Source: Eledone cirrhosa (taxonomy: Eukaryota). Taken from it: DNA of 64,000 bases. This document shows, in pieces, positions 4,409-57,152 of this stretch. Made by a program: the position numbers and the translations under genes. The stretch is taken from contig OZ024740.1 of assembly GCA_964016885.1 (NCBI GenBank), forward strand, positions 175,336,001-175,400,000, written 5' to 3'. The notes beneath the pieces were generated by a model. That model did not search any database. It was not told where the DNA came from and saw nothing but the letters and a program-made list of their open reading frames with translations. How positions within the stretch are numbered: the first letter of the stretch is position 1; every line of letters starts with the position of its first letter.

Positions 4409-5041
4409 TCTATATATATAAAACTGAGGATGTGTGTGTGTGTGTGAGAATTTGAATCCCTAAAACTCGAGAAATACCCAACCGATTGTTTTCAAACTTT
4501 AAATGTATATTACTTATATTTCAGGGAGTGTTACGCACATAAAAATTTCAACTTTTTCATCACCTAGGGCCTGCATTAGGTGAAAAACTGCGTTTTTTTC
4601 AGCTTTTTAGGGTTTTTTTGAGGCGTTACGTCAGACCGATTTCCTTGAAATTGTAACTATGTATTAGTCAGTCTCTTCTTCATAACGTGAGCAAAGAAAA
4701 TCCAACTTTTTTATGACCTAGGGCCCGAATTAAGTGAAAAACTTCATTTTTTTCAGCTTATTAGGGCTTATTGGAGGCGTTACGTCTAGCCGATTTTCCC
4801 GAAATTTCAAGGCATATTATGCACATAAAAAAAATTAATTTCCTTGATCCCCTAGGGATTAGGTGAAAACCTGCATTTTTCCTGCTTCATCGAGGAAAAT
4901 CTTAAAGATTATCCAGCCATCAGAGTATTCGGTTTATTTTCTTTACATATTGTCCAGCATGCAGTTTTTCCACGATTAGGTCTGTTGGCGGCCCGCGTTC
5001 CAAAATACCTTATCCCGTGCAACGCCGGGTACCACTGCTAG
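4409..5041 (+). mobile_element. Non-autonomous Helitron, family A
   Basis: A|TCTATATATATAAAA start, (TG)n, 3' hairpin CCCGTGCAACGCCGGG, CTAG|T end, no TSD; copies at 15039 and 56557. Confidence 0.9.
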
Positions 5042-14881: not shown

Positions 14882-14954
<73 letters not shown>

Positions 14955-14961
14955 ATATATG

Positions 14962-14994
<33 letters not shown>

Positions 14995-15038
14995 TTATAA
15001 GAAATAAGATTTCGCTTCAAGCATAGCTTTATACAATA

Positions 15039-15963
15039 CTAGCAGTGGTACCCGGCGTTGCACGGGATAAGGTATTTTGGAACGCGGACCGCCAACAGAC
15101 CTAATCGTGGAAAAACTGCATGCCTGGACAATATGTAAAGAAGATAAACCGAAAACTCTGATGGCTGGATAATCTTTAAGATTTTCCTCGATGAAGCAGG
15201 AAAAATGCAGGTTTTCACCTAATGCGGGGATCAAGAAAATAATTTTTTTTTATGTGCATAATATGCCTTGAAATTTCAGGAAAATCGGCTAGACGTAACG
15301 CCTCCAAAAAGCCCTAAGAAGCTGAAAAAATGAAGCTTTTCACCTAATGCGGGCCCTAGGGCATAAGAAAGTTGGATTTTCTTTGTTTACGGTATGAAGA
15401 AGAGACTGACTAATACATAGTTAGAATTTCAAGGAAATCGGTCTGACGTGACGCCTCAAAAATCCCCTAAAAATGTAAAAAAACGCAGTTTCTCACGTAA
15501 TGCGGGCCCTAGGAGATTAAAAAAAAGTTGAATTCTTTATGTGCGTAACACTCCCTGAAACATAAGTAATACGCATGTAAAGTTTGAAAAAAATCGGTTG
15601 GATACTTCTCGAGTTTTAGGGATTCAAACTCACAGAGACACACACACACACAGACAGACATCCTCAGGGAGGTGACGTAATGCAGACAGCCAGACATACA
15701 GACAGATATTATAAGGGCGCGACGTTCTATGTATGTATCTATCTAAAAAGAGAAAGACTAAGAATTATAGAGCGAGATCGTTATATCGCCTAATGCGGTC
15801 GCTAGGGCATTAAAACTTTGAAATTGTTTGTGCTCAGAACACTCCCTGAAACATAAGTATTACATGTGTAGAATTTGAAAACAGTCGGTTGGGTGGTTCT
15901 CAAGTTTTAGGGATTCGAACTCACACACACACAGACAGACATTCTCAGTTTTATATATATAGA
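15039..15963 (-). mobile_element. Non-autonomous Helitron, family A, with duplicated 5' module
   Basis: Reverse complement of 4409-5041 over 15039-15667, plus a second 5' module 15830-15963 ending in TC; A|T target. Confidence 0.9.
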
Positions 15964-16073
15964 TGTATAGAAATATTGTATTTCGAAAGAAATACGGTTT
16001 TAGGAAGCCATAGCTTTCCAAACACCGGGGGGCTAACGCCCTCTGGTGATGTCCAGCAGAAGAAAGGGAGACA

Positions 16074-16117
16074 ACCGTCTATGCATTTCAGGCTTAACTG
16101 GCCTTCGTCAGGATGAT
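16074..16117 (-). ncRNA. Minimal type I hammerhead ribozyme (family R)
   Basis: ATCATC CTGACGA AGGC cagttaa GCCT GAAA TGCA TA GACGGT. Confidence 0.8.
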
Positions 16118-16286
16118 CCCTCCCATCGCTTGCGACTGCTGGACTAGAAGACAACCGAGAATAAATAGTTTTCTCGTCTGTGTAAATGAGGTGATTAATC
16201 TCATTTGCATATGAAGCTGCATAAGTTGGCTCAACTTATAATAGAAAAGAAATAAGATTTCGCTTCAAGCATAGCTTTATACAATA

Positions 16287-17388
16287 TTAGCAGAATAGCC
16301 CGGCGTTGCTCGGGATTTGCTCTCGGGTTCTTATATATTTGATATATATTTATCTTTATCGAGCCTCGTGAAATAAATACGTTTGTTTATATTTTGTTAT
16401 TGTGTATGCAAAAATATCTGTACACGAATATATAATTATATATAACAGGACAGAGAAGTACGAAATACCTCGGCCTCGGGATGGTGTCTACATTTTGTGC
16501 TTATAAAATTAGTATCAATAAACTTTCCTGGATATACTCTTATCCCAATCCTCTACATACTTCTGATTGTCACTTTTCATTTTTTTCGCGTGATACGCGA
16601 AGGAACCAACCAACAAACATCTCTCTTTTATATCTCTTTTATTTGTTCATTCAAAATATTTTTCAGCTAATTCTGTCGTACAATATACATCAGCAATCGT
16701 TATCTAATGTTTAAAACATATGAATAGCTGCGATATATGCACCATATCAATTAAAAACGATATGAGAATTGAATACCATACTAAAGCGCCAGTAAGCTTG
16801 CTAAGAACCTGCAGATAGAAATGTTAATAAATACAACATTTGGCTTGGGTAAACTTTAAGATGTTCTTTCATTGTAGGTTTCTTTTCTCAGCCAGTACGT
16901 TAAAGAAAATTGATAGTTACAACAATAAATGTTGAACAGAGAACACATTATTTAACAAACTTTGCAATAATTTGTACAACCATAATGGAAATTCCAAGTA
17001 ACAGAAAATACATAAATTACATTGTTAGAGCCTCAGAGTATACAATATTTTTTGTTCGGCCCTCGGGAGCAAAGAGAAAGAGTTTGTTTGGCGAGCTCAC
17101 TCTAGAGCATCCTACATACAATTGACCATGGCTTTCCCAGATGAAGGCCAGCCACTTTTAAGGTTTGACACTGACCTTTGTTGATGGTAATCGCGAAGCT
17201 TAGTCTCTCTGTTGTTCTAGTAACATTTTTTTTCCTGAAAAATCTGATCTTGCGGCCAGGCTAGGACTTTTTGGGTGGCCTATCGGCAGTAACAATGATG
17301 ATAAGCCGTCTGTGCTTTCGTGAAATAAATACGTTTGTTTATATTTTGTTTTTGTGTATGCAAAACTTTCTGTACACGAATATATAAT

Positions 17389-17450
<62 letters not shown>

Positions 17451-17827
17451 TAACAGATTAAAGTATAAGCAAAGAATCGGTGCTTTCAACCTTAACGGGA
17501 TATGCTGAAACTAAAAAAATCAATGTGTGAACGCAGAAGTAAATATTTCAAAAAACGTTGCAACCGAAAGAAAACAGGAAGATGATACTTTGGTTCGTGA
17601 AGACGTTAGGAATGTGGTATAACCGGAAGTGTTGACATTTGAAAATTTGAAAGAAGTTAATATTTAAATAATGTCTTTAATCTTTTAACAAAATTCAGTA
17701 GACAAAAATACCCTCACTTACATACTTGGAAAAAGTTACGTCTATGGTGCAAATTTGATGCCATTTGGTCCAGTCGGTTGGCGGAAAGTTTGTTACTTAC
17801 ATACGGCCGTCAGCTTTATAGTATAGA
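16287..17827 (-). mobile_element. Non-autonomous Helitron, family B, with PLE-derived interior
   Basis: 5' A|TCTATACTATAAAGCTG, 3' hairpin CCCGAGCAACGCCGGG, CTAA|T (CTRR) end. Confidence 0.75.
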
Positions 17828-17950
17828 TGTATAGAAATTTCGTATTTCGAAAGAAATACGGTTTTAGGAAGCCGTAGCTATGCACACACCGATCAGGGGG
17901 GGGGGGGGACTGACACCCTCTGGTGATGTCCAGCACAAGCAAGGGGGACG

Positions 17951-17994
17951 ACCGTCTATGCATTTCAGGCTTAACTGGCCTTCGTCAGGACCGT
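17951..17994 (-). ncRNA. Minimal type I hammerhead ribozyme (family R)
   Basis: GTC CTGACGA AGGC..GCCT GAAA TGCA TA GAC. Confidence 0.75.
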
Positions 17995-18272
17995 CCCTCC
18001 CATCACTAGCGACTACTGGACTAGAAGACAGCCGAGAATATATAGTTTTCTCGTCTGTGTAAATGAGGTGATTAATCTCATTTGCATATGAAGCTGCATA
18101 AGTTGGCTCAACTTATAATAGAAAAGAAATAAGATTTCGCTTCAAGCATAGCTTTATACCACGTGTATAGAAATTTCGTATTTCGAAAGAAGTACGGTTT
18201 TAGGAAGCCGTAGCTATGCAAACACCGGGGGGCTGACGCCCTCTGGTGATGTCCAGCAGAAGCAAGGGGGAA

Positions 18273-18316
18273 ACCGTCTATGCATTTCAGGCTTAACTGG
18301 TCTTCGTCAGGACGAT
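18273..18316 (-). ncRNA. Minimal type I hammerhead ribozyme (family R), one stem II mismatch
   Basis: ATCGTC CTGACGA AGAC..GCCT GAAA TGCA TA GACGGT; inversion junction directly 5' of stem I. Confidence 0.75.
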
Positions 18317-18481
18317 TGTATAAAGCTATGCTTGAAGCGAAAATTTATTTCTTTTCTATTATAAGTTGAGCCAACTTATGCAGCTTCATATGCAAATGAG
18401 ATTAATCACCTCATTTACACAGACGAGAAAACTATATATTCTCGGCTGTCTTCTAGTCCGGCAGTCGCAAGCGGTGGGAGG

Positions 18482-18527
18482 GATCGTCCTGACGAAGGCC
18501 AGTTAAGCCTGAAATGCATAGACGGTC
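18482..18527 (+). ncRNA. Minimal type I hammerhead ribozyme (family R), intact
   Basis: GATCGTC CTGACGA AGGC cagttaa GCCT GAAA TGCA TA GACGGTC; palindromic stem III ATGCAT. Confidence 0.88.
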
Positions 18528-18645
18528 GTCCCCCTTGCTTCTGCTGAACATCACCAGAGGGTATTAGCTCCCCGGTGTTTGCATAGCTACGGCTTCCTAA
18601 AACCGTATTTCGAAAGAAATACGAAATTTCTATACATATTGTATA

Positions 18646-18656
18646 TATATATATAT

Positions 18657-18704
<48 letters not shown>

Positions 18705-18706
18705 TA

Positions 18707-18754
<48 letters not shown>

Positions 18755-18850
18755 AATATATATATATATATAATATATAATATATATATATAATATATGA
18801 TATATATATATATAAATTATATATATATAATATATATATATATATAATAT

Positions 18851-18883
<33 letters not shown>

Positions 18884-18990
18884 TATAGATATATATATAT
18901 ATTATAGATATATATATATTATAGATATATATATAATATAGATATAGATATATTATAGATATATACATATATATATTATAGATATATATA

Positions 18991-19021
<31 letters not shown>

Positions 19022-19526
19022 ATATTATATTATATATATATATATATATATATTATATATTATATATATAAATTATATCTACATATATTATATATTATAT
19101 ATATATATATGATGTATATATATATTATATATTATTTATATATTATATATTATATTTATATATTATATATATATTATATATTATATATATATTATATATT
19201 ATATTTATATATTATATATATATTATATATATATTATATATTATATTTATATATTATATATATATTTATATATTATATATATATTATATATTATATTTAT
19301 ATATTATATATATATTATATATTATATATATATATGATGTATATATATATTATATATTATATTTATATATTATATATATATTATATATTATATATATATA
19401 TATGATGTATATATATATTATATATTATATATATATATATTATATATATATTATATATTATATATTATACATATGTATATTATATATATATATTATATAT
19501 ATTATATATGATATATATATATTATA

Positions 19527-19585
<59 letters not shown>

Positions 19586-19602
19586 ATTATATATATTATA
19601 TA

Positions 19603-19647
<45 letters not shown>

Positions 19648-19983
19648 TATATATATTATATATATATTATATATATTATATATTATATATATTATATATT
19701 ATATATATTATATATATATATATTATATATATATATATATTATATATCTTATATATATATTATATATATATATATTATATATATATATATTATATATATA
19801 TATATATTATATATATATTATATATATATATATATATTATATATATATATTATATATATATCGTACATATATTTTATATATATATTATATATATATATTA
19901 TATACATATATTATATATATTATATATATATCGTACATATATTTTATATATATATTATATATATATATTATATACATATATTA

Positions 19984-20074
<91 letters not shown>
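18646..20074. repeat. ~1.4-kb imperfect (TA)n array
   Basis: TA repeats with recurrent TATTA/TAATA interruptions. Confidence 0.95.
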
Positions 20075-20078
<4 letters not shown>

Positions 20079-20222
20079 CCAAAGATTAATATGGTTCATT
20101 GATTACTCAATGAATACAGATTTACAAGAGATTAAAAGCACTCAACAAAAGAATTTTCCTGGAGTTTTCAATATTATTCATAATATTAACAAATGAAGAT
20201 ATTCGCATAATCAAAATATATG

Positions 20223-20284
20223 CTTTATCATATATATTTCGAAGGTACTGTGTTGTTTTTTCAGTACGTCCTCGTCAGATAAAA
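20223..20284 (-). ncRNA. Type I hammerhead with G at the cleavage position (probably inactive), in a PLE-type remnant (20075-20349)
   Basis: TTTTAT CTGACGA GGACGTACTG..CAGTACCTTC GAAA TATATA TG ATAAAG. Confidence 0.7.
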
Positions 20285-20385
20285 TATATGATTTGATATA
20301 CGACATACCTCTACGGTCTTGATATTTCAATTCCAGTATTGGCAGTCCATATATATATTATATATATATATATATATATACATAA

Positions 20386-20513
<128 letters not shown>

Positions 20514-20660
20514 TATATATATATATACAATTGTAACAGAATAAATTGAGTTCAGATGCATCACTGACTTTTCGTTTTCTATTCTATCATACTCTGCACT
20601 GTAAGAGCATAAAGTTCTCAACCAGCAGGCATACCGCCTATGGAAGCATCTTAGCTACCA

Positions 20661-21632
<972 letters not shown>

Positions 21633-21634
21633 AA

Positions 21635-40591: not shown

Positions 40592-40902
40592 CTGCATAAT
40601 TAATACTTTGTAGATAGCAGCTGTTTTCAGGATATATAACTGTTATTGAAACACGTGTCAATAAATTCCTTTTACTGAACTGTATCCATTTAAATCCTTC
40701 TCTCTATATATATATATAAATATATATATATTATATATATATTATATATATATATTATATATATGTATATAATATACATATTATATATGTTATATATATA
40801 TATATATATATATTATATCTATATTATATATATATATATTATATATATATTATATATATATTATGAAAATAAACCAAAGAAGCCTTCAATACATCAAAAG
40901 TC

Positions 40903-40955
40903 CTTATTAGCCAACAATGTTTCGTCCTATTAAGGACTCATCAGGGCAATTAAAG
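40903..40955 (-). ncRNA. Type I hammerhead ribozyme (PLE-4, inverted arm)
   Basis: GCC CTGATGA GTCCT taat AGGAC GAAA CATTG TT GGC. Confidence 0.88.
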
Positions 40956-41286
40956 CTATAAGAAGCACTATCAGCCAATACAAGCCAAAAACTCAGAAGA
41001 ATATGGAGTGTACATACATTAAAGCATAGGAAAATTATCGGGTAAAAATTATCAAGTAAAAATTGCTAAGGGAGTGAATAACATTTTGAACCATATTACA
41101 AATATAGCCCAATGTAAAAACTAAATCTAAACAAAGGTGGTGATATAGAGCGGGAATTATTGTACTATATATAATATAATATAATATAATATAATATAAT
41201 ATAATATAATATAATATAATTGATAATGATAATAATAATAATAATATTAAAAGGCCCAATATACATATATATATACATATGTACAC

Positions 41287-41604
41287 AGGTTTAATTCTCA
41301 TATCTCTAATTTTAAACATGTTAAGTTTAAGAATTCTACTTCTTTAGCACACCATATTTGGGATCTTAAGGAGGGCAATATACCATATAGCCTTAATTGG
41401 CGAATAGTAGCACGCTCTAATAACCTTTCAACACATACTAAATTTTGTAATCTCTGTATCCTTGAGACCCACTCTATAATTTTCTCTAGGGAAACCTTAC
41501 TTAATAGAAAGTCTGAGATATTCTCTTCTTGCCCCCACGCCATTTCAAATTCTTACTTTTATTATAAACCTAAAGGTTCTAGTGGTGTAAATTGTATCCA
41601 TTAG
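41287..41604 (+). pseudogene. PLE-4 GIY-YIG C-terminal remnant (105 codons, open)
   Basis: RFNSHISNFKH...STSLAHHIWDLK...WRIVARS...CNLCILE...LLNRKSEIFSSCPH. Confidence 0.85.
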
Positions 41605-43334
41605 CTGCTATATTCCCTTACCTTTTTAGTTTAGGTTCATTTTGTTTACCACCATCATTATCATTATTATTATTATTGGTTTTTAACAGCTTTTCATTCT
41701 AGTTTTCATAGTCCTTTGGCTACCATACCATATCTATATTATATTTTCACTATTAACACCTTATGAGTTTATATCTGATTATATATTTTATTTTATATTA
41801 TTTTATTTTATTTTATTTGGATTCTTCTTTAGATAATTACCCCCCCCCCCCCACACACACTTGTCATTCGCCCCTTCAAATATACTATAATTATATTCAA
41901 TTCCCTTTTATGCTCCTTTCTATTGTATAATACAGTATATTGATTATTATTTTATGCTCCTTCGTATCCTCCATACATTTCTTTTTTCTGTCCCCATTGG
42001 CCTACCATAATTATACTTAAAGTCCGTTTATTAGTTAACGTTATTCAACTGATAGTAGAATATTTCATTCGTTTCCAGATATTTTTATAGTGATATCTTA
42101 AACTTTGGAGATTTTGATTACTTAAACCATAGCTAATTTTGTATTGACTTATGTATTTTAAATACTTTCAATATTAATTAATTTAATAGGGTTTTCTAGT
42201 CATTTATCCGGGTTTGTTTCCTAAATTTTTTACTTAACTGCATGTGACACCTAAGTAAATACTTTTGTTTTTTTTTTCGATTTCCGGTTGATTTTATTTA
42301 TATATTTATACTACCGTGCGTAGTTTTCTGTCTGGTTCCTATTCACTTATTCACAAATGTCTGTCCACCAACCACGTAATTATGTATATTATACTATGTT
42401 CAATATTTTATATTGAAATTTTTATATCATTCCACTCTTTGTAAACGTACTACTGATCTTTATTATTTACCGATTATTAAATGCACCATTATGTTATGTT
42501 AAATTTGTAAATTCTGTAATATGTTTATATTTTATAATTTTTGTAATGTTTGGATAATATTTATTTACACCAATTGTAGAGAAATGTGACCTCCATCTGT
42601 TTTCTTGCAATGGTTTTGATATTTTTCCAACATAATTTTTCCAACATAATTTAGTTCTGTACAATATTTTTTCTCACCCGGTCTGTAACTCTATATGATT
42701 TGTTAAGTTATATGCCATTATATTATAATATTGTTATTATAGTGTTATTGTAACATTTATATTGTTTGTGCAAATTAACCGGAGATTATCTATTATATAA
42801 TTATATAGTTTATTATATATTATATGTTTACTTTTAATCATTTCTTCTTCATTTTATACTGTAAATAATATATGTATTATATTTTTATTTTTATTCTTAT
42901 TATTCTTATTTATATTTAAACTCTTAATAAGGGTTAGTTTGTGCTTGTATTGATGGAAATGTGTATTGATATATATGTATATATGTGTACATATGTATAT
43001 ATATATATATGTATATTGGGACTTTTAATATTATTATTATTATTATCATTATCAATTATATTATATTATATTATATTATATTATATTATATTATATTATA
43101 TTATATTATATTATATTATATATAGTACAATAATTCCCGCTCTATATCACCACCTTTGTTTAGCTTTAGTTTTTGCATTGGACTATATTTGTAATATGGT
43201 TCAAAATGTTATTCACTCCCTTAGCAATTTTTACTTGATAATTTTTACCCGATAATTTTCCTATGCTTTAATGTATGTACACTCCATATTCTTCTGAGTT
43301 TTTGGCTTGTATTGGCTGATAGTGCTGCTTATAG

Positions 43335-43388
43335 CTTTAATTACCCTGATGAGTCCTTAATAGGACGAAACATTGTTGGCTAATAAAG
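43335..43388 (+). ncRNA. Type I hammerhead ribozyme (PLE-4 3' pLTR)
   Basis: ACC CTGATGA GTCCT taat AGGAC GAAA CATTG TT GGC. Confidence 0.85.
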
Positions 43389-43616
43389 ACTTTTGATGTA
43401 TTGAAGGCTTCTTTGGTTTATTTTCATAATTCTTCGGCTCTGTTTAATTACATTGAGCTATACCTTTACTGTCATTTCTATAATACGAAGAGGGTGTTTA
43501 ACTCCAACACACTCTAGTATTTTAAATTGTCTTATATTATATATATATATGTATTATATATATTGTATATATATTATCAGATGTGAGAAAAACCACAGAC
43601 CCTCCATCTCAACTCA

Positions 43617-46220: not shown

Positions 46221-47063
46221 TATTTCTCTTTCTCTTAATTTCGAGTCAATTTTTGACCGGCCACCTTCCTGGTGGCAAGGTTGCAAAAGAAAAGAAATTG
46301 TCATCCCTTGAATCAATCGCAAGAATGTTTTGCAAATTTTGAAGGTGCCAGCTATCGCAGCCATTTGTAGTCTATGAATTAGGGTACTGCGCTCTTTGTC
46401 CACAAATCCAAAATCAGTCATACTTTGGTCCAAACGGGTTGGTATATAACCTGTTGCTCCAATAATGATGGGTATGGCTGAAGGTGTATCTTGGATTTGC
46501 AAACTCTTCATCCGTAGATATCCCCTTTCTCTTGTATTTTTCTTACAACGTTGACACCAAGTGGGCATCTGATCTCTACAACAGAGTACGTTTTCAATGT
46601 GTGGTCTCAAACAACAATATCAGGCCGGTTGTGTTTTAATTTGGTGGCAGTTTTTATTTTCATGTTCCACCATCTATCTCAACATATTCATCCTCATTTG
46701 TTTTTAATTTTGCTTTCTTAAGTGCGTTCCAGATGGTTCTAGCTACCGCATTGTGTCTCATTGGGAGGTAGTAGCGAGACGACATTCTTTCGCAGTTGGC
46801 AACAATGTGCCTAATATCTTCGATCTTTGTTTTACATAGCCTACATTTATTGTCAACTGATGGCCCTTCTCTTTTGTCTAGCAGATATTTGGTAGGGATT
46901 TCTTGTTCCTGTATTGCATAGAGATATCCTTCACGGTGGGATGTCATAAACTTGTCGGAACTCCATGCCAGGCTTTTTGAATGATTTATCCCCTCTATGG
47001 GCTGTGTTTTTCGTCTCAGGTACCCATGCACAACTTTCTCTGTAAATTAGTCCATTTTAAAAA
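46221..47063 (-). mobile_element. 5'-truncated R4/Dong-like RLE LINE (family B) in (TACA)n
   Basis: AIQEQEIPTKY, CRLC...EDIRHIVANC, RHNAVA, RPDIVV, IPIIIGATG; (TATG)n on both sides. Confidence 0.85.
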
Positions 47064-53336: not shown

Positions 53337-56300
53337 TTCTTCTCGTTTTATAATTTCACAAAGTTTTACCAATAGAGAGAGAGTCGGTTTCTAACATAGA
53401 TACAAGACTCTCTCATTGGAATTTACACAATGTATGTATGCATGCATGTGTAGATATGGATGTTATTGTATGTGTGGATGTGTATGTTTTGAGTTGTATG
53501 TGTGCATGTTATTGTATGTGTGCATGCTTTGCATCTGTACATATGTATATGCAGTTATTAGATGCAACATTTTTGGAATGTTTTACATATTTTTACTGTT
53601 CCAATAATGGATTGTACTTTTAATTTCCTAACTAGTTGTGTTCTTTCTGTTCCTGTGAACCCTAGCTTCTCAGGATTTGTATTGAGGCAGTTACTAACAT
53701 ACCCCAGTGCCCCAATAATCACAGGCATAAATCTGAAGGTGTAATCAGGGTGGAGTATCTGCACTTTTCTCATCAGTTCTGCATAAATATTCTCCTTTTC
53801 ACTAATCTTTGATATTATATTGGCATCTGCTGGGCAGCTAATTTCCACTACTGTGCATACTTTCTTCTCCCTGTCCCATATCATAACATCTGGTCTGTTA
53901 TGCCTGCATTTTATTGTTTTTTTTTACTGGAACATTCCACCAGTACTCTTTCATATTATGTACATGAATGTCTTCCACATTGCTGTAGCTTTTAATGTGT
54001 TTATTATCGGGCTATCCTTTTTACGAACTGCATTGTACAGTGTTTTGGCCACTACATCATGCCTCATAGGTAGATAGTACCGCGATGACATCTTTGGACA
54101 GCTGCTGATGACATGGGTGATATCCTCGATGTTAGTTCTGCAGAGTCTGCACTTGTTATCACATCTAGGTATTTTGCCTTGATCCCTATCTCTTCTTTCA
54201 ATCAGGTACTTCGTGTTAATCTCCTGTTCTTGGATTGCAAAAGCGTATCCTTCAAAGTGGGAGCCAATATAGCGGTTGTTGGTCCAAGATAGACTACTTT
54301 CCTTATGTATATTACTCTCACTCTGGAGCTTCCTGGCAACATATACATGCATGATGTTATGCTGATAAGTATGCAGTTTTTCATCCTTGGATTCACTCCG
54401 ATACTGCTGAGCAGCTTCCCTGTGTGTGAGGCTTTGATTATAACACAGGGAATATCTCTCGAGGAGTTCCTTCCCAACTCTCATGATCTTATCATGAGAG
54501 TTCATGCAGATAGACTTGCTTGAGAAACGGGCCGCTACGCTTCGAGGTTCGTAGATGTTGTCGGAGAGATATGATGCGACATTCAAATGTTGTCTGGACT
54601 GATGTTAGGCCTCTGCCTCCCTGCTTACGTTTCAAGTAAAGGCGGTCTGTGTCACTGTTGATGTGGAAGTTTCCGGTGTTGTTTAGTATTTTTCGAGTTC
54701 CAACATCAACTGCTCGGATTTTGTCTATCGTCCAATTGAGTATTCCAAACGTTGGTGTTAGGACAGGCACAGCAAACGTATTGTGAGCCACTGTTTTGTT
54801 TTGCGCAGAGAGTTCCGATGACCATGTCTTTTTTAATCCGGTGTAGTATTCCCTGGTTACGCGTTCTTTATTACAGATACCATTATTGGATATGTTCTCA
54901 TCTATCCCCAGGTATCTGTAGCAGTCCTCATCAGATATCGGTGAAACAGTTAGGCCATTGATGACAATGTTGCTAGAATGGGTTGTTGTTTTTCCTCGCT
55001 TTACAGTCATGTATGAGCATTTATCTTGGCCAAACTCCATTCCTATATCCTTTGAGAACGGTGTAACCAGGTCAAGATTTTTCTTCATCCCATCCATGTT
55101 CTTGGCATAGAGTTTCAGATCGTCCACAAAAAAATTATGGGTTAGGTTCGTATTTCTGTCCTCCTGTGAGCCAATGATGTATCCCTCACATTTCTTGAGC
55201 AGAAAGGACAAGGGGTTTAATGACATGATGAATAATATCTCAGAGAGACTGTCCCCCTGAAATATACCCCTGCAATATTTTATTTTATCAGTGAAAATAG
55301 AGTCCTCCCTCTCTGTCTTTAACCTTAGGATAGTAGCCCAAGAAGAAGACAGCCTCTCTATGGCTCCGACAATAATGTCTGGAACTTTAGCAAGTTGGAG
55401 GGCCTCTATCATCCAAGAGTGGGGAACAGAATAGAAAGTTTTCCTGTAGTCCAGCCAGACTGTAGTCATATTCCTCCTAAGTTGTCGCACCTCCGACATC
55501 GCAGTTTTGTTGATTAGGAGGTGTTCAACACATCCCCAAACCCCTTTCTTTCTAGCTGCTTGTTCATCTGTGATGATGTTATTATTTTCACAGTGATCTT
55601 GGAGGAATAGGTTCAGGCAGGCTGTATACATCTTATACATCAGGTTCTGACATGCAATGGGTCGGTTGTTTTTTGCCAAGTGGGTGTCTTGGTTCTTCGG
55701 GACCAGTTATGTTTGTGCTAATGTTAACCATTCTGGTATAAGTGTATCTCCCTTAAGAACTTGTTGGTAGAGGTCAGTAAGATACCTCCGATAGTTTTTT
55801 GTACCAGTAGCCGACAATCATGTCTCTTCCTGGTGTTTTCTTATCTTGGAGTTTTCCTATCACAGTCTCAAGGGTACCCTCACTTATTTCGTATGTTTTT
55901 GTTGTAGTGTAGGAGCAATAGTTCTTTCGGATTTCTCTAGGCCACACTGCATCTTGGTTGAAATTCTTCTTTTCACCTCATATTTTGCTCCAAAAGGAAT
56001 CTATGTCTTTCTGAGATGGGGCCTCAGTGACACTTATTATTTTGCCCTTCATATCTCTATAGACTGATGTTTGGTTTCGTCTGAATCTTTTATTAAGCAC
56101 TTTCCCCTCATCTACCTTCTTCAGGTATCGGCGTTTTTCACTAACAGCTCTCAATTCTTGTTTGAGGGTGATCAGCTTATATTGGAGAGTTCTGGTTCTA
56201 CTGTTACCAAACATCGTCAATATTTTATTTTTCTCTCTTTGTTGGTGAGGAGTGAGGTTTTTTGTGTTTGTTTGCATGTAAGTAGCATTGTCACATATCC

Positions 56301-56556: not shown

Positions 56557-57152
56557 TCTATATATATAAAACTGAGCATGTCTATCTGTGTGTGTGTCTG
56601 TGAGTTTGAATCCCTAAAACTCGAGAAGTACCCAACCGATTTTTTTCAAACTTTACATGTGTATCAACTATTTGATCACGCATTAGGTGAAAAACTGCGT
56701 TTTTTCAGCTTTTTAGGTTTTTTTTGAGGCGTTACGTCAGACTGATTTCCTTGAAATTGTAACTATGTATTAGTCAGTGTCTTCTTCATACCGCGAGAAA
56801 AGAAAATCCAACTTTTTTCTGGCCTAGGGCCCGCATTAGGTGAAAAGCTTCATTTTTTCAGCTTTTTATGGCTTTTTTGAGGCGTTACGTCTAGCCGATT
56901 TTCCCGAAATTTCAAGGCATATTATGCACATAAAAAAAAATCATTTTCTTTATCCCCTAGGGTCCGCATTAGGTGAAAACCTGGTGTTTTCCTAATTCAT
57001 CGAGGAAAATCTTACAGATTATCCAGGCATCAGATTATTAGGTTTATTTTCTTTACATATTGACCAGGCATGCAGTTTTTCCACGATTAGGTCTGTTGGC
57101 GGCCCGCGTTCCGAGATACCTCATCCCGTGCAACGCCGGGTACCACTGCTAG
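56557..57152 (+). mobile_element. Non-autonomous Helitron, family A
   Basis: TCTATATATATAAAA...CCCGTGCAACGCCGGG-TACCACTG-CTAG|T. Confidence 0.9.

Follow-up and report, generated by a model that had tools for sequence, protein, structure and literature searches.

One bond of a retrozyme in Eledone cirrhosa as a landing site for many Helitron families

The stretch of Eledone cirrhosa DNA analysed here (the window: 64,000 nucleotides, positions 175,336,001 to 175,400,000 of contig OZ024740.1, assembly GCA_964016885.1) contains a retrozyme, a short repeat with a predicted hammerhead ribozyme, in which two different Helitrons, A and B, occupy the identical nucleotide of consecutive units. The locus is one case of a wider pattern: throughout the genome, many Helitron families have landed independently at this one bond. 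The likely means are a general target motif and an easily opened, TA-like palindrome, and for this reading taken as a whole the chances seem about even.

The pile-up is sharp. There are 39 distinct filled junctions, which form 12 clusters; two of these are variants of a single family, C, which leaves about 11 Helitron groups, all at one bond and in one orientation (one of the 39 Helitrons has no hairpin, and one host is a short remnant). Exact filled junctions number 31 genome-wide, against none for a reversed control, and about 3% of all junctions are occupied. When a gap of 0-30 nt from an upstream anchor was left free, 29 of 31 matches lay at this bond, the other two not being Helitrons. 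In the opposite orientation none of 11 matches fell inside the unit, and four were Helitron ends in abutting TA tracts. The only site of the unit with a higher matrix score lies 54 nt off, and the stretch that holds it gave four matches: three Helitron-like ends, all in TA-like DNA at the end of the retrozyme tail or past it (one of which may lie in the unit), and one chance match. These genome-wide position scans covered all but ~200 nt of the unit. The first-pass annotation had suggested a sequence-specific landing site, and a sharp, orientation-specific one for many independent groups is what emerged.

Family C is the youngest family, with 2,286 exact ends genome-wide under the search pattern used, and it may still be active. 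Its autonomous partners are 8 kb long, and one (locus L345) has a 1598-aa frame with Helitron_like_N (PF14214) and PIF1 (PF05970) domains. Young autonomous copies were seen at L345:1790-9797, L346, L348, L350, L351 and L354, with frames for the transposase RepHel of up to 1598 aa, and these copies carry an internal copy of their own 3′ region. Among 14 loci examined, no autonomous RepHel partner with the ends of A or B was present.

In the window, the retrozyme insertion begins at a (TA)n tract on the left side (14885-14999), the target that it entered. The features that follow lie on the minus strand unless noted. First comes the retrozyme 3′ tail (14999-15038), which corresponds to unit positions 284-323 and follows the junction on the ribozyme strand; blastn identified it, and a tail followed by (TA)n is the layout of most loci. 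Helitron A (15039-15963), non-autonomous and 925 bp long, sits at A|T (the bar marks the insertion point), and seven members of its group occur at the same junction genome-wide. Unit 1 (15964-16286, 323 bp) has a predicted minimal type I hammerhead fold at 16074-16117, with CUGACGA, stem II, GAAA, a palindromic AUGCAU replacing stem III, and UA. Helitron B (16287-17827), also non-autonomous, 1541 bp long and with the terminus CTAA, occupies the A|T of the next unit, as sequence and the clustering of filled junctions show, at the same bond as A. Unit 2 (17828-18163, 336 bp; predicted hammerhead at 17951-17994) leads to a third junction (18155-18170), and unit 3 (18164-18314) is 5′-truncated, stopping just upstream of the hammerhead core at an inversion point. 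Beyond this point an inverted unit on the plus strand (18315-18645, predicted hammerhead at 18483-18526) begins 1 nt from the junction bond, and a long TA-rich tract (18631-21633) closes the right side.

Both Helitrons have canonical ends. On the minus strand, A has the 5′ end TCTATATATATAAAAC and a 3′ hairpin followed by CTAG, while B has the 5′ end TCTATACTATAAAGCT and a 3′ hairpin followed by CTAA; the hairpins that precede the 3′ termini are GC-rich, in agreement with the Helitron signature of 5′ TC and 3′ CTRR. The flanks of the two are alike, …GCTTTATACAATA on the left and TGTATAGAAAT on the right. Comparison of filled with empty junctions confirms insertion at A|T without target-site duplication, and both elements lie on the same strand as the hammerhead. 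The third junction is of normal length and empty; it reads TATACCACG|TGTATAG and lacks the A|T. Its three substitutions within four bases (18160-18163, AATA to CACG) may be a scar left by repair or, alternatively, an error in the assembly. The inverted copy ends in an intact empty junction, TCTATACA|TATTGTATA (18629-18645), which continues into (TA)n. In all these particulars the earlier description of the locus holds.

Could A and B simply be one insertion that was duplicated along with the array, or could the assembly be wrong here? Either is so improbable as to be nearly negligible, and nothing in its favour turned up; four sequencing runs yielded no read across the locus. The best match between A and B is an 18-nt stretch inside the 3′ hairpin, and the same junctions recur on many contigs, so that a misassembly at this locus would be immaterial for the pattern. 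Nor do two neighbouring filled junctions need an extra cause, because about 0.15 such loci are expected, given ~3% occupancy and the 14 close pairs that the first 100 listed empty junctions contain.

Another question is whether the Helitrons travelled as cargo inside retrozyme RNA, so that the filled copies go back to few insertions, as had been proposed for ribozyme RNAs mobilised by Penelope-like elements. Their shared orientation with the ribozyme fits such transport, as does the preference of family C for one retrozyme subfamily, which holds 11 of 14 family-C insertions but 2 of 15 from other families (p = 0.0007). However, the 16 family-C copies at the site are not monophyletic, being scattered among 59 others in a tree and comprising several structural (deletion) variants. 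Moreover, over 36 pairs the host flanks differ by 8.2% on average (3.9% at least), whereas the family-C Helitrons within them differ by 1.35% (1.8% at most); a composite moved as one would be equally diverged in both parts. Together with the presence of ~11 groups, the greater divergence of the hosts and the scatter in the tree show that the insertions at this bond are independent. Cargo transport is therefore rejected as very unlikely, and age matching may explain the link to one subfamily.

What, then, directs independent Helitrons to one bond? The target sites of family C outside the retrozyme suggest part of the answer. From 70 such sites, 10 that were tandem, duplicated or nested were dropped, and the remaining 60 (in which position +15 is constrained by the search pattern) have T at +1 in all cases, followed by A at +7 (78%), T at +8 (80%), and A at +9 (78%), +10 (75%) and +11 (80%); 24 of the 60 have exact T-N5-ATAAA. 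The retrozyme junction, A|TATTGT ATAAA, is an exact fit and ranks second by matrix among the 58 AT sites of the unit. Bond and orientation thus match a general Helitron target motif, A|T-N5-ATAAA, shown for family C. The view that Helitrons are known mainly for an A|T preference was incomplete, since the available text on barley Helitrons (PMC5738225) already gives a favoured AAA triplet that lies downstream of the A-T site, at a distance of 8 bp. For Helraiser, the accessible part of the source places the AT-rich preference most strongly on the 3′ side (PMC4778049), and that for wheat reports an AT preference alone (PMC13286980). A general lopsided motif of this kind, A|T, five bases and ATAAA, would likely fix both position and orientation. 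RepHel would recognise the ATAAA, which lies downstream of the nick by about one turn of the helix, and would join the Helitron 5′ TC to …TATACA-3′.

A more specific suggestion was that the junction mimics a Helitron 5′ end, that is, the Rep nicking origin, so that its binding would be sequence-specific to a degree that the general motif does not cover. The resemblance on which it was built is partly real: TCTATA and TATAAAGCT are common to the junction, the 5′ end of B and the 5′ ends of some family-C variants. Family C also lands in or at the 5′ ends of other Helitrons (12 ends, tandem joins included). The register, however, is off by 2-3 nt, since TATAAAGCT lies at +6 to +14 from the target bond but at 8-16 from the 5′ end of B itself, and the TCTATAC of the unit sits upstream of the bond, on the wrong side. 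In addition, G at +12 and C at +13 are both disfavoured at the 60 other family-C sites (7% and 5%), and the subfamily without TC (TTTATACA) has 11 of the 14 family-C insertions with a readable flank. Given the mismatched register and the disfavoured letters of GCT, origin mimicry is weakly supported at best, and it is quite improbable.

The retrozyme is not alone in attracting Helitrons to one bond. Among the first 100 family-C places listed, one was the retrozyme junction and 11 were divided over four other repeats, each hit at a single site (3, 3, 3 and 2; recurrent sites i to iv), so at least 12 of 100 listed insertions of this family fall on five single bonds, and four of the five repeats, the retrozyme and three others, are Penelope-like. 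One recurrent repeat bears a predicted hammerhead on the strand of the Helitron and was found beside a GIY-YIG match. Two have a tandem or head-to-head structure in which copies stop or turn round at the bond used by the Helitron. One of the two seems to carry its Helitron against the host direction, which suggests that orientation follows the motif and not the strand of an RNA. These pile-ups point to a hot spot rather than a partnership, and the special bond between Helitrons and retrozymes that the first-pass annotation had considered is unlikely.

Several related cases were seen in passing. The recurrent hammerhead repeat (L386:1000-1290, L362, L363 and L114) is very abundant, with four motifs in 400 kb of random DNA, and it is in L386 that the GIY-YIG match adjoins it. 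At L364, two family-C Helitrons occupy consecutive units of a ~590-bp tandem repeat, in opposite orientations and 4 nt apart in unit position; at L368, two lie within ~150 nt. Another hammerhead-like motif stands beside GIY-YIG matches in L399 and L403.

The motif alone leaves an excess to be explained. Genome-wide there are 41 places where a Helitron end follows the 11 letters on the 3′ side of the bond. Of 30 inspected, 25 were retrozyme and five not; nine more are known filled retrozyme junctions and the last two fell one to each side, giving 35 retrozyme against six non-retrozyme cases (one of the six doubtful). Empty 12-mers number 4,157, which were divided by way of the first 100 places listed (41 with the exact 25-mer; four retrozyme among the 38 inspected of the other 59) into an extrapolated ~1,190 retrozyme and ~2,970 other sites. 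Thus 35 of ~1225 retrozyme junctions are filled, as against six of ~2976 identical 11-mers elsewhere (odds ratio 14.6, p = 8e-14); with worst-case denominators the odds ratio is 5.5 (p = 4e-6). By estimate, family C fills ~1.3% of junctions and ~0.06% of generic A|T-N5-ATAAA sites.

The excess over identical 11-mers would most likely come from the easy opening of the palindrome at the junction, a perfect stem of 6 bp (in one subfamily, 8 bp) with a 3-nt loop, TATACA-TAT-TGTATA. Single-stranded DNA is the substrate of HUH enzymes, a property discussed in the available text of PMC5876387. The stem may extrude or melt and so expose the bond in single-stranded form, which is the weakest step of the scheme. 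At 43 ordinary sites the mean best stem is 3.1, against 2.7 in permutations (p = 0.01).

A number of points weigh against the combination of motif and palindrome. Two AT-only sites drive the stem difference just given; at none of the 43 ordinary sites does a stem with the geometry of the junction exceed 3 bp (p = 0.35), and stems of at least 5 bp are not enriched there (4 against 3.7, p = 0.51). Insertions occur in the 8-bp subfamily and in the 6-bp one alike, and an uncalibrated comparison gives the longer stem no clear advantage. Nor does the excess follow from the matrix, in which G at +5 is rare (2%) and by which the junction does not outscore control 12-mers. The division of empty sites was extrapolated from the first 100 listed places, all on one contig. 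Lastly, no family but C shows the ATAAA phase clearly; the 18 sites of other families, several of them chosen for lying in TA tracts, are TA-rich, with the exact motif in 3 of 18.

By its sequence, the host is a dispersed non-LTR (long terminal repeat) retrozyme with more than 1,000 copies and Penelope-type anatomy: 2,750 candidates were found in the 3.0-Gb genome (40 of them scored), along with 1,039 exact empty junction 25-mers. The 323-bp unit is dispersed, fits the retrozyme range of 170-400 bp, and is non-coding, with no frame of at least 120 aa in either direction within units 1-3. The units contain the core letters and stems I and II of the predicted hammerhead; 70 of 92 copies keep the core pattern intact, and core columns are slightly better conserved (97.8%) than the unit average (94.4%). 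An Rfam scan of the locus called no hammerhead in the retrozyme units, and shuffled sequences fold about as stably (z = -0.42). The usual locus consists of (TA)n, a 40-50-nt tail, a unit, a truncated unit and an inverted copy. Of the "hammerhead-ribozyme tandem array" described earlier, the predicted hammerhead stands, by core letters and fold, while the array is one short Penelope-type insertion (tail, units and inverted copy between two (TA)n tracts) and not satellite-like.

This anatomy agrees with that given for Penelope-like elements in the available parts of PMC8557442 and PMC3846280, namely a partial tandem, an adjoining inverted 5′-truncated copy, an optional tail and (TA)n targets, the difference being a tail of ~40-50 nt here against the published 30-40. 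Non-LTR retrozymes, as far as the accessible text describes them (PMC7229834; bioRxiv 10.64898/2026.07.22.740005), share a non-coding tandem unit of ~320 bp with a single type I hammerhead, and more than 1,000 dispersed copies. They differ in that the hammerhead predicted here is minimal, as reported for Penelope and Terminon elements, and in that most loci here have 1-3 units with a tail and an inverted copy. Retrozymes have been proposed to be non-autonomous Penelope derivatives (the same preprint, in its available part), and the unit would be copied by a Penelope-like element that inserts into (TA)n. No coding Penelope partner matching the unit was found in the 30 GIY-YIG loci examined (of 150 listed and 10,596 candidates) or among 27 frames near retrozymes. 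The short inverted AGCTATGC repeats and the hairpin near the junction had also raised the idea of a Helentron-like element, which was dropped in view of the tails, inversions and (TA)n targets of the copies.

The Helitron bond is the boundary between the body and the tail of the retrozyme unit. In the examined loci, a non-random sample, 51 sense-strand ends of units stop within -3 to +4 of the bond, 102 junctions continue and 30 are filled (62 further anchor matches at -4 to -6, mostly spurious, were set aside). This coincidence gives rise to another explanation, in which Helitrons use nicks or gaps that a Penelope GIY-YIG endonuclease would leave at the body/tail boundary and the motif sets the orientation only. 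The tail of Penelope elements is ascribed to endonuclease resolution in the available part of PMC8557442. The strand of the 51 ends is the same, and the bond also coincides with several points of inversion or truncation. At recurrent sites iii and iv, too, host copies have ends or inversion points at the bond taken by the Helitron, and the repeat with site ii is the hammerhead-bearing one found beside a GIY-YIG match. Against this, nearly all such ends run into (TA)n, so that the exact cut is unreadable and microhomology to TA explains the coincidence; HUH transposases nick their target themselves; and the copy-number intervals for recurrent sites i to iv are too wide for occupancy to be derived. 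On balance, the use of such nicks is rather unlikely. In a wider form, Helitrons would home on a Penelope-type body/tail boundary, exploiting a nicked or hairpin-opened site that the endonuclease of another element uses to resolve its intermediates, which is conceivable but doubtful.

Or is the retrozyme simply accessible? Copies that are transcribed or nucleosome-free would offer the DNA that Helitrons favour, with the motif picking the bond within an open patch. According to the accessible text, Helraiser is 14.2-fold enriched in open chromatin (PMC4778049) and abundant expression of non-LTR retrozymes is reported from other animals (PMC7229834); seven Helitron-like ends (4 + 3) lie in TA tracts directly abutting retrozyme ends, although this number has no calibrated expectation. 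Regional enrichment was not seen: the 200 kb that surround 20 empty junctions hold 3 Helitron ends, and 400 kb of random DNA hold 5 (small counts). The higher-scoring site 54 nt off is nearly unused (0 or 1 of its four matches), which also speaks against openness as the cause; this too seems unlikely. A fixed distance from the (TA)n tract was no better as a cue: just two of 67 family-C sites lie 35-60 nt from such a tract, both in recurrent repeats.

The rest of the window contains relatives of these elements. Two further family-A Helitrons (4409-5041 and 56557-57152) and a Helitron of another family (at ~61,700) have motif-like 3′ flanks; in all, the 64 kb hold five Helitron ends, against ~12 per Mb in random DNA. 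A second hammerhead element (40865-43430) has inverted arms adjoining a TA tract, in a Penelope-like layout, and contains Rfam Hammerhead_1 matches below the gathering score at 40906-40950 (minus strand) and 43340-43384 (plus strand). A relative of recurrent-site repeat iv, at ~20520-20660, ends in (TA)n near the bond used by Helitrons in other copies. Fragments of a LINE-type (long interspersed nuclear element) reverse transcriptase and of zf-RVT lie at 54495-55706 and 46660-47043, both on the minus strand.

How does all this compare with known Helitrons? In maize, Helitrons insert near other Helitrons. Barley, as treated in the available part of PMC5738225, has the same kind of asymmetric target, with the AAA triplet downstream; the present case is from an animal genome and has the fuller motif, and that text describes neither single-bond pile-ups in other repeats nor an excess beyond the motif, which here is 5-15-fold. 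Helraiser and canonical Helitron1 elements (PMC4778049, PMC5876387, in their accessible parts) resemble the present ones in 5′ TC, 3′ hairpin and CTRR, A|T without target-site duplication, AT-rich bias strongest on the 3′ side and a RepHel partner (here for family C); they differ in that no single-bond hot spot inside another element is described for them, and A and B are non-autonomous. The literature as available, mostly titles and the openings of abstracts with few subscription papers, records no Helitron hot spot within a retrozyme or at the end of a Penelope element. Each part is known in kind, while the convergence on one bond and its excess appear to be new.

The choice and opening of the target are the least understood step of the Helitron cycle. 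A natural site with ~1,200 near-identical copies, ~40 of them filled at one bond, is a ready, saturating test substrate, in which motif, palindrome and flanks can be changed separately. The asymmetric motif of barley is extended to an animal genome, and there is a warning for annotation as well: recurrent composites of this kind resemble co-mobilised units but are not. If Helitrons do exploit the Penelope boundary, then the target choice of a DNA transposon would be linked to the cutting site of a retroelement.

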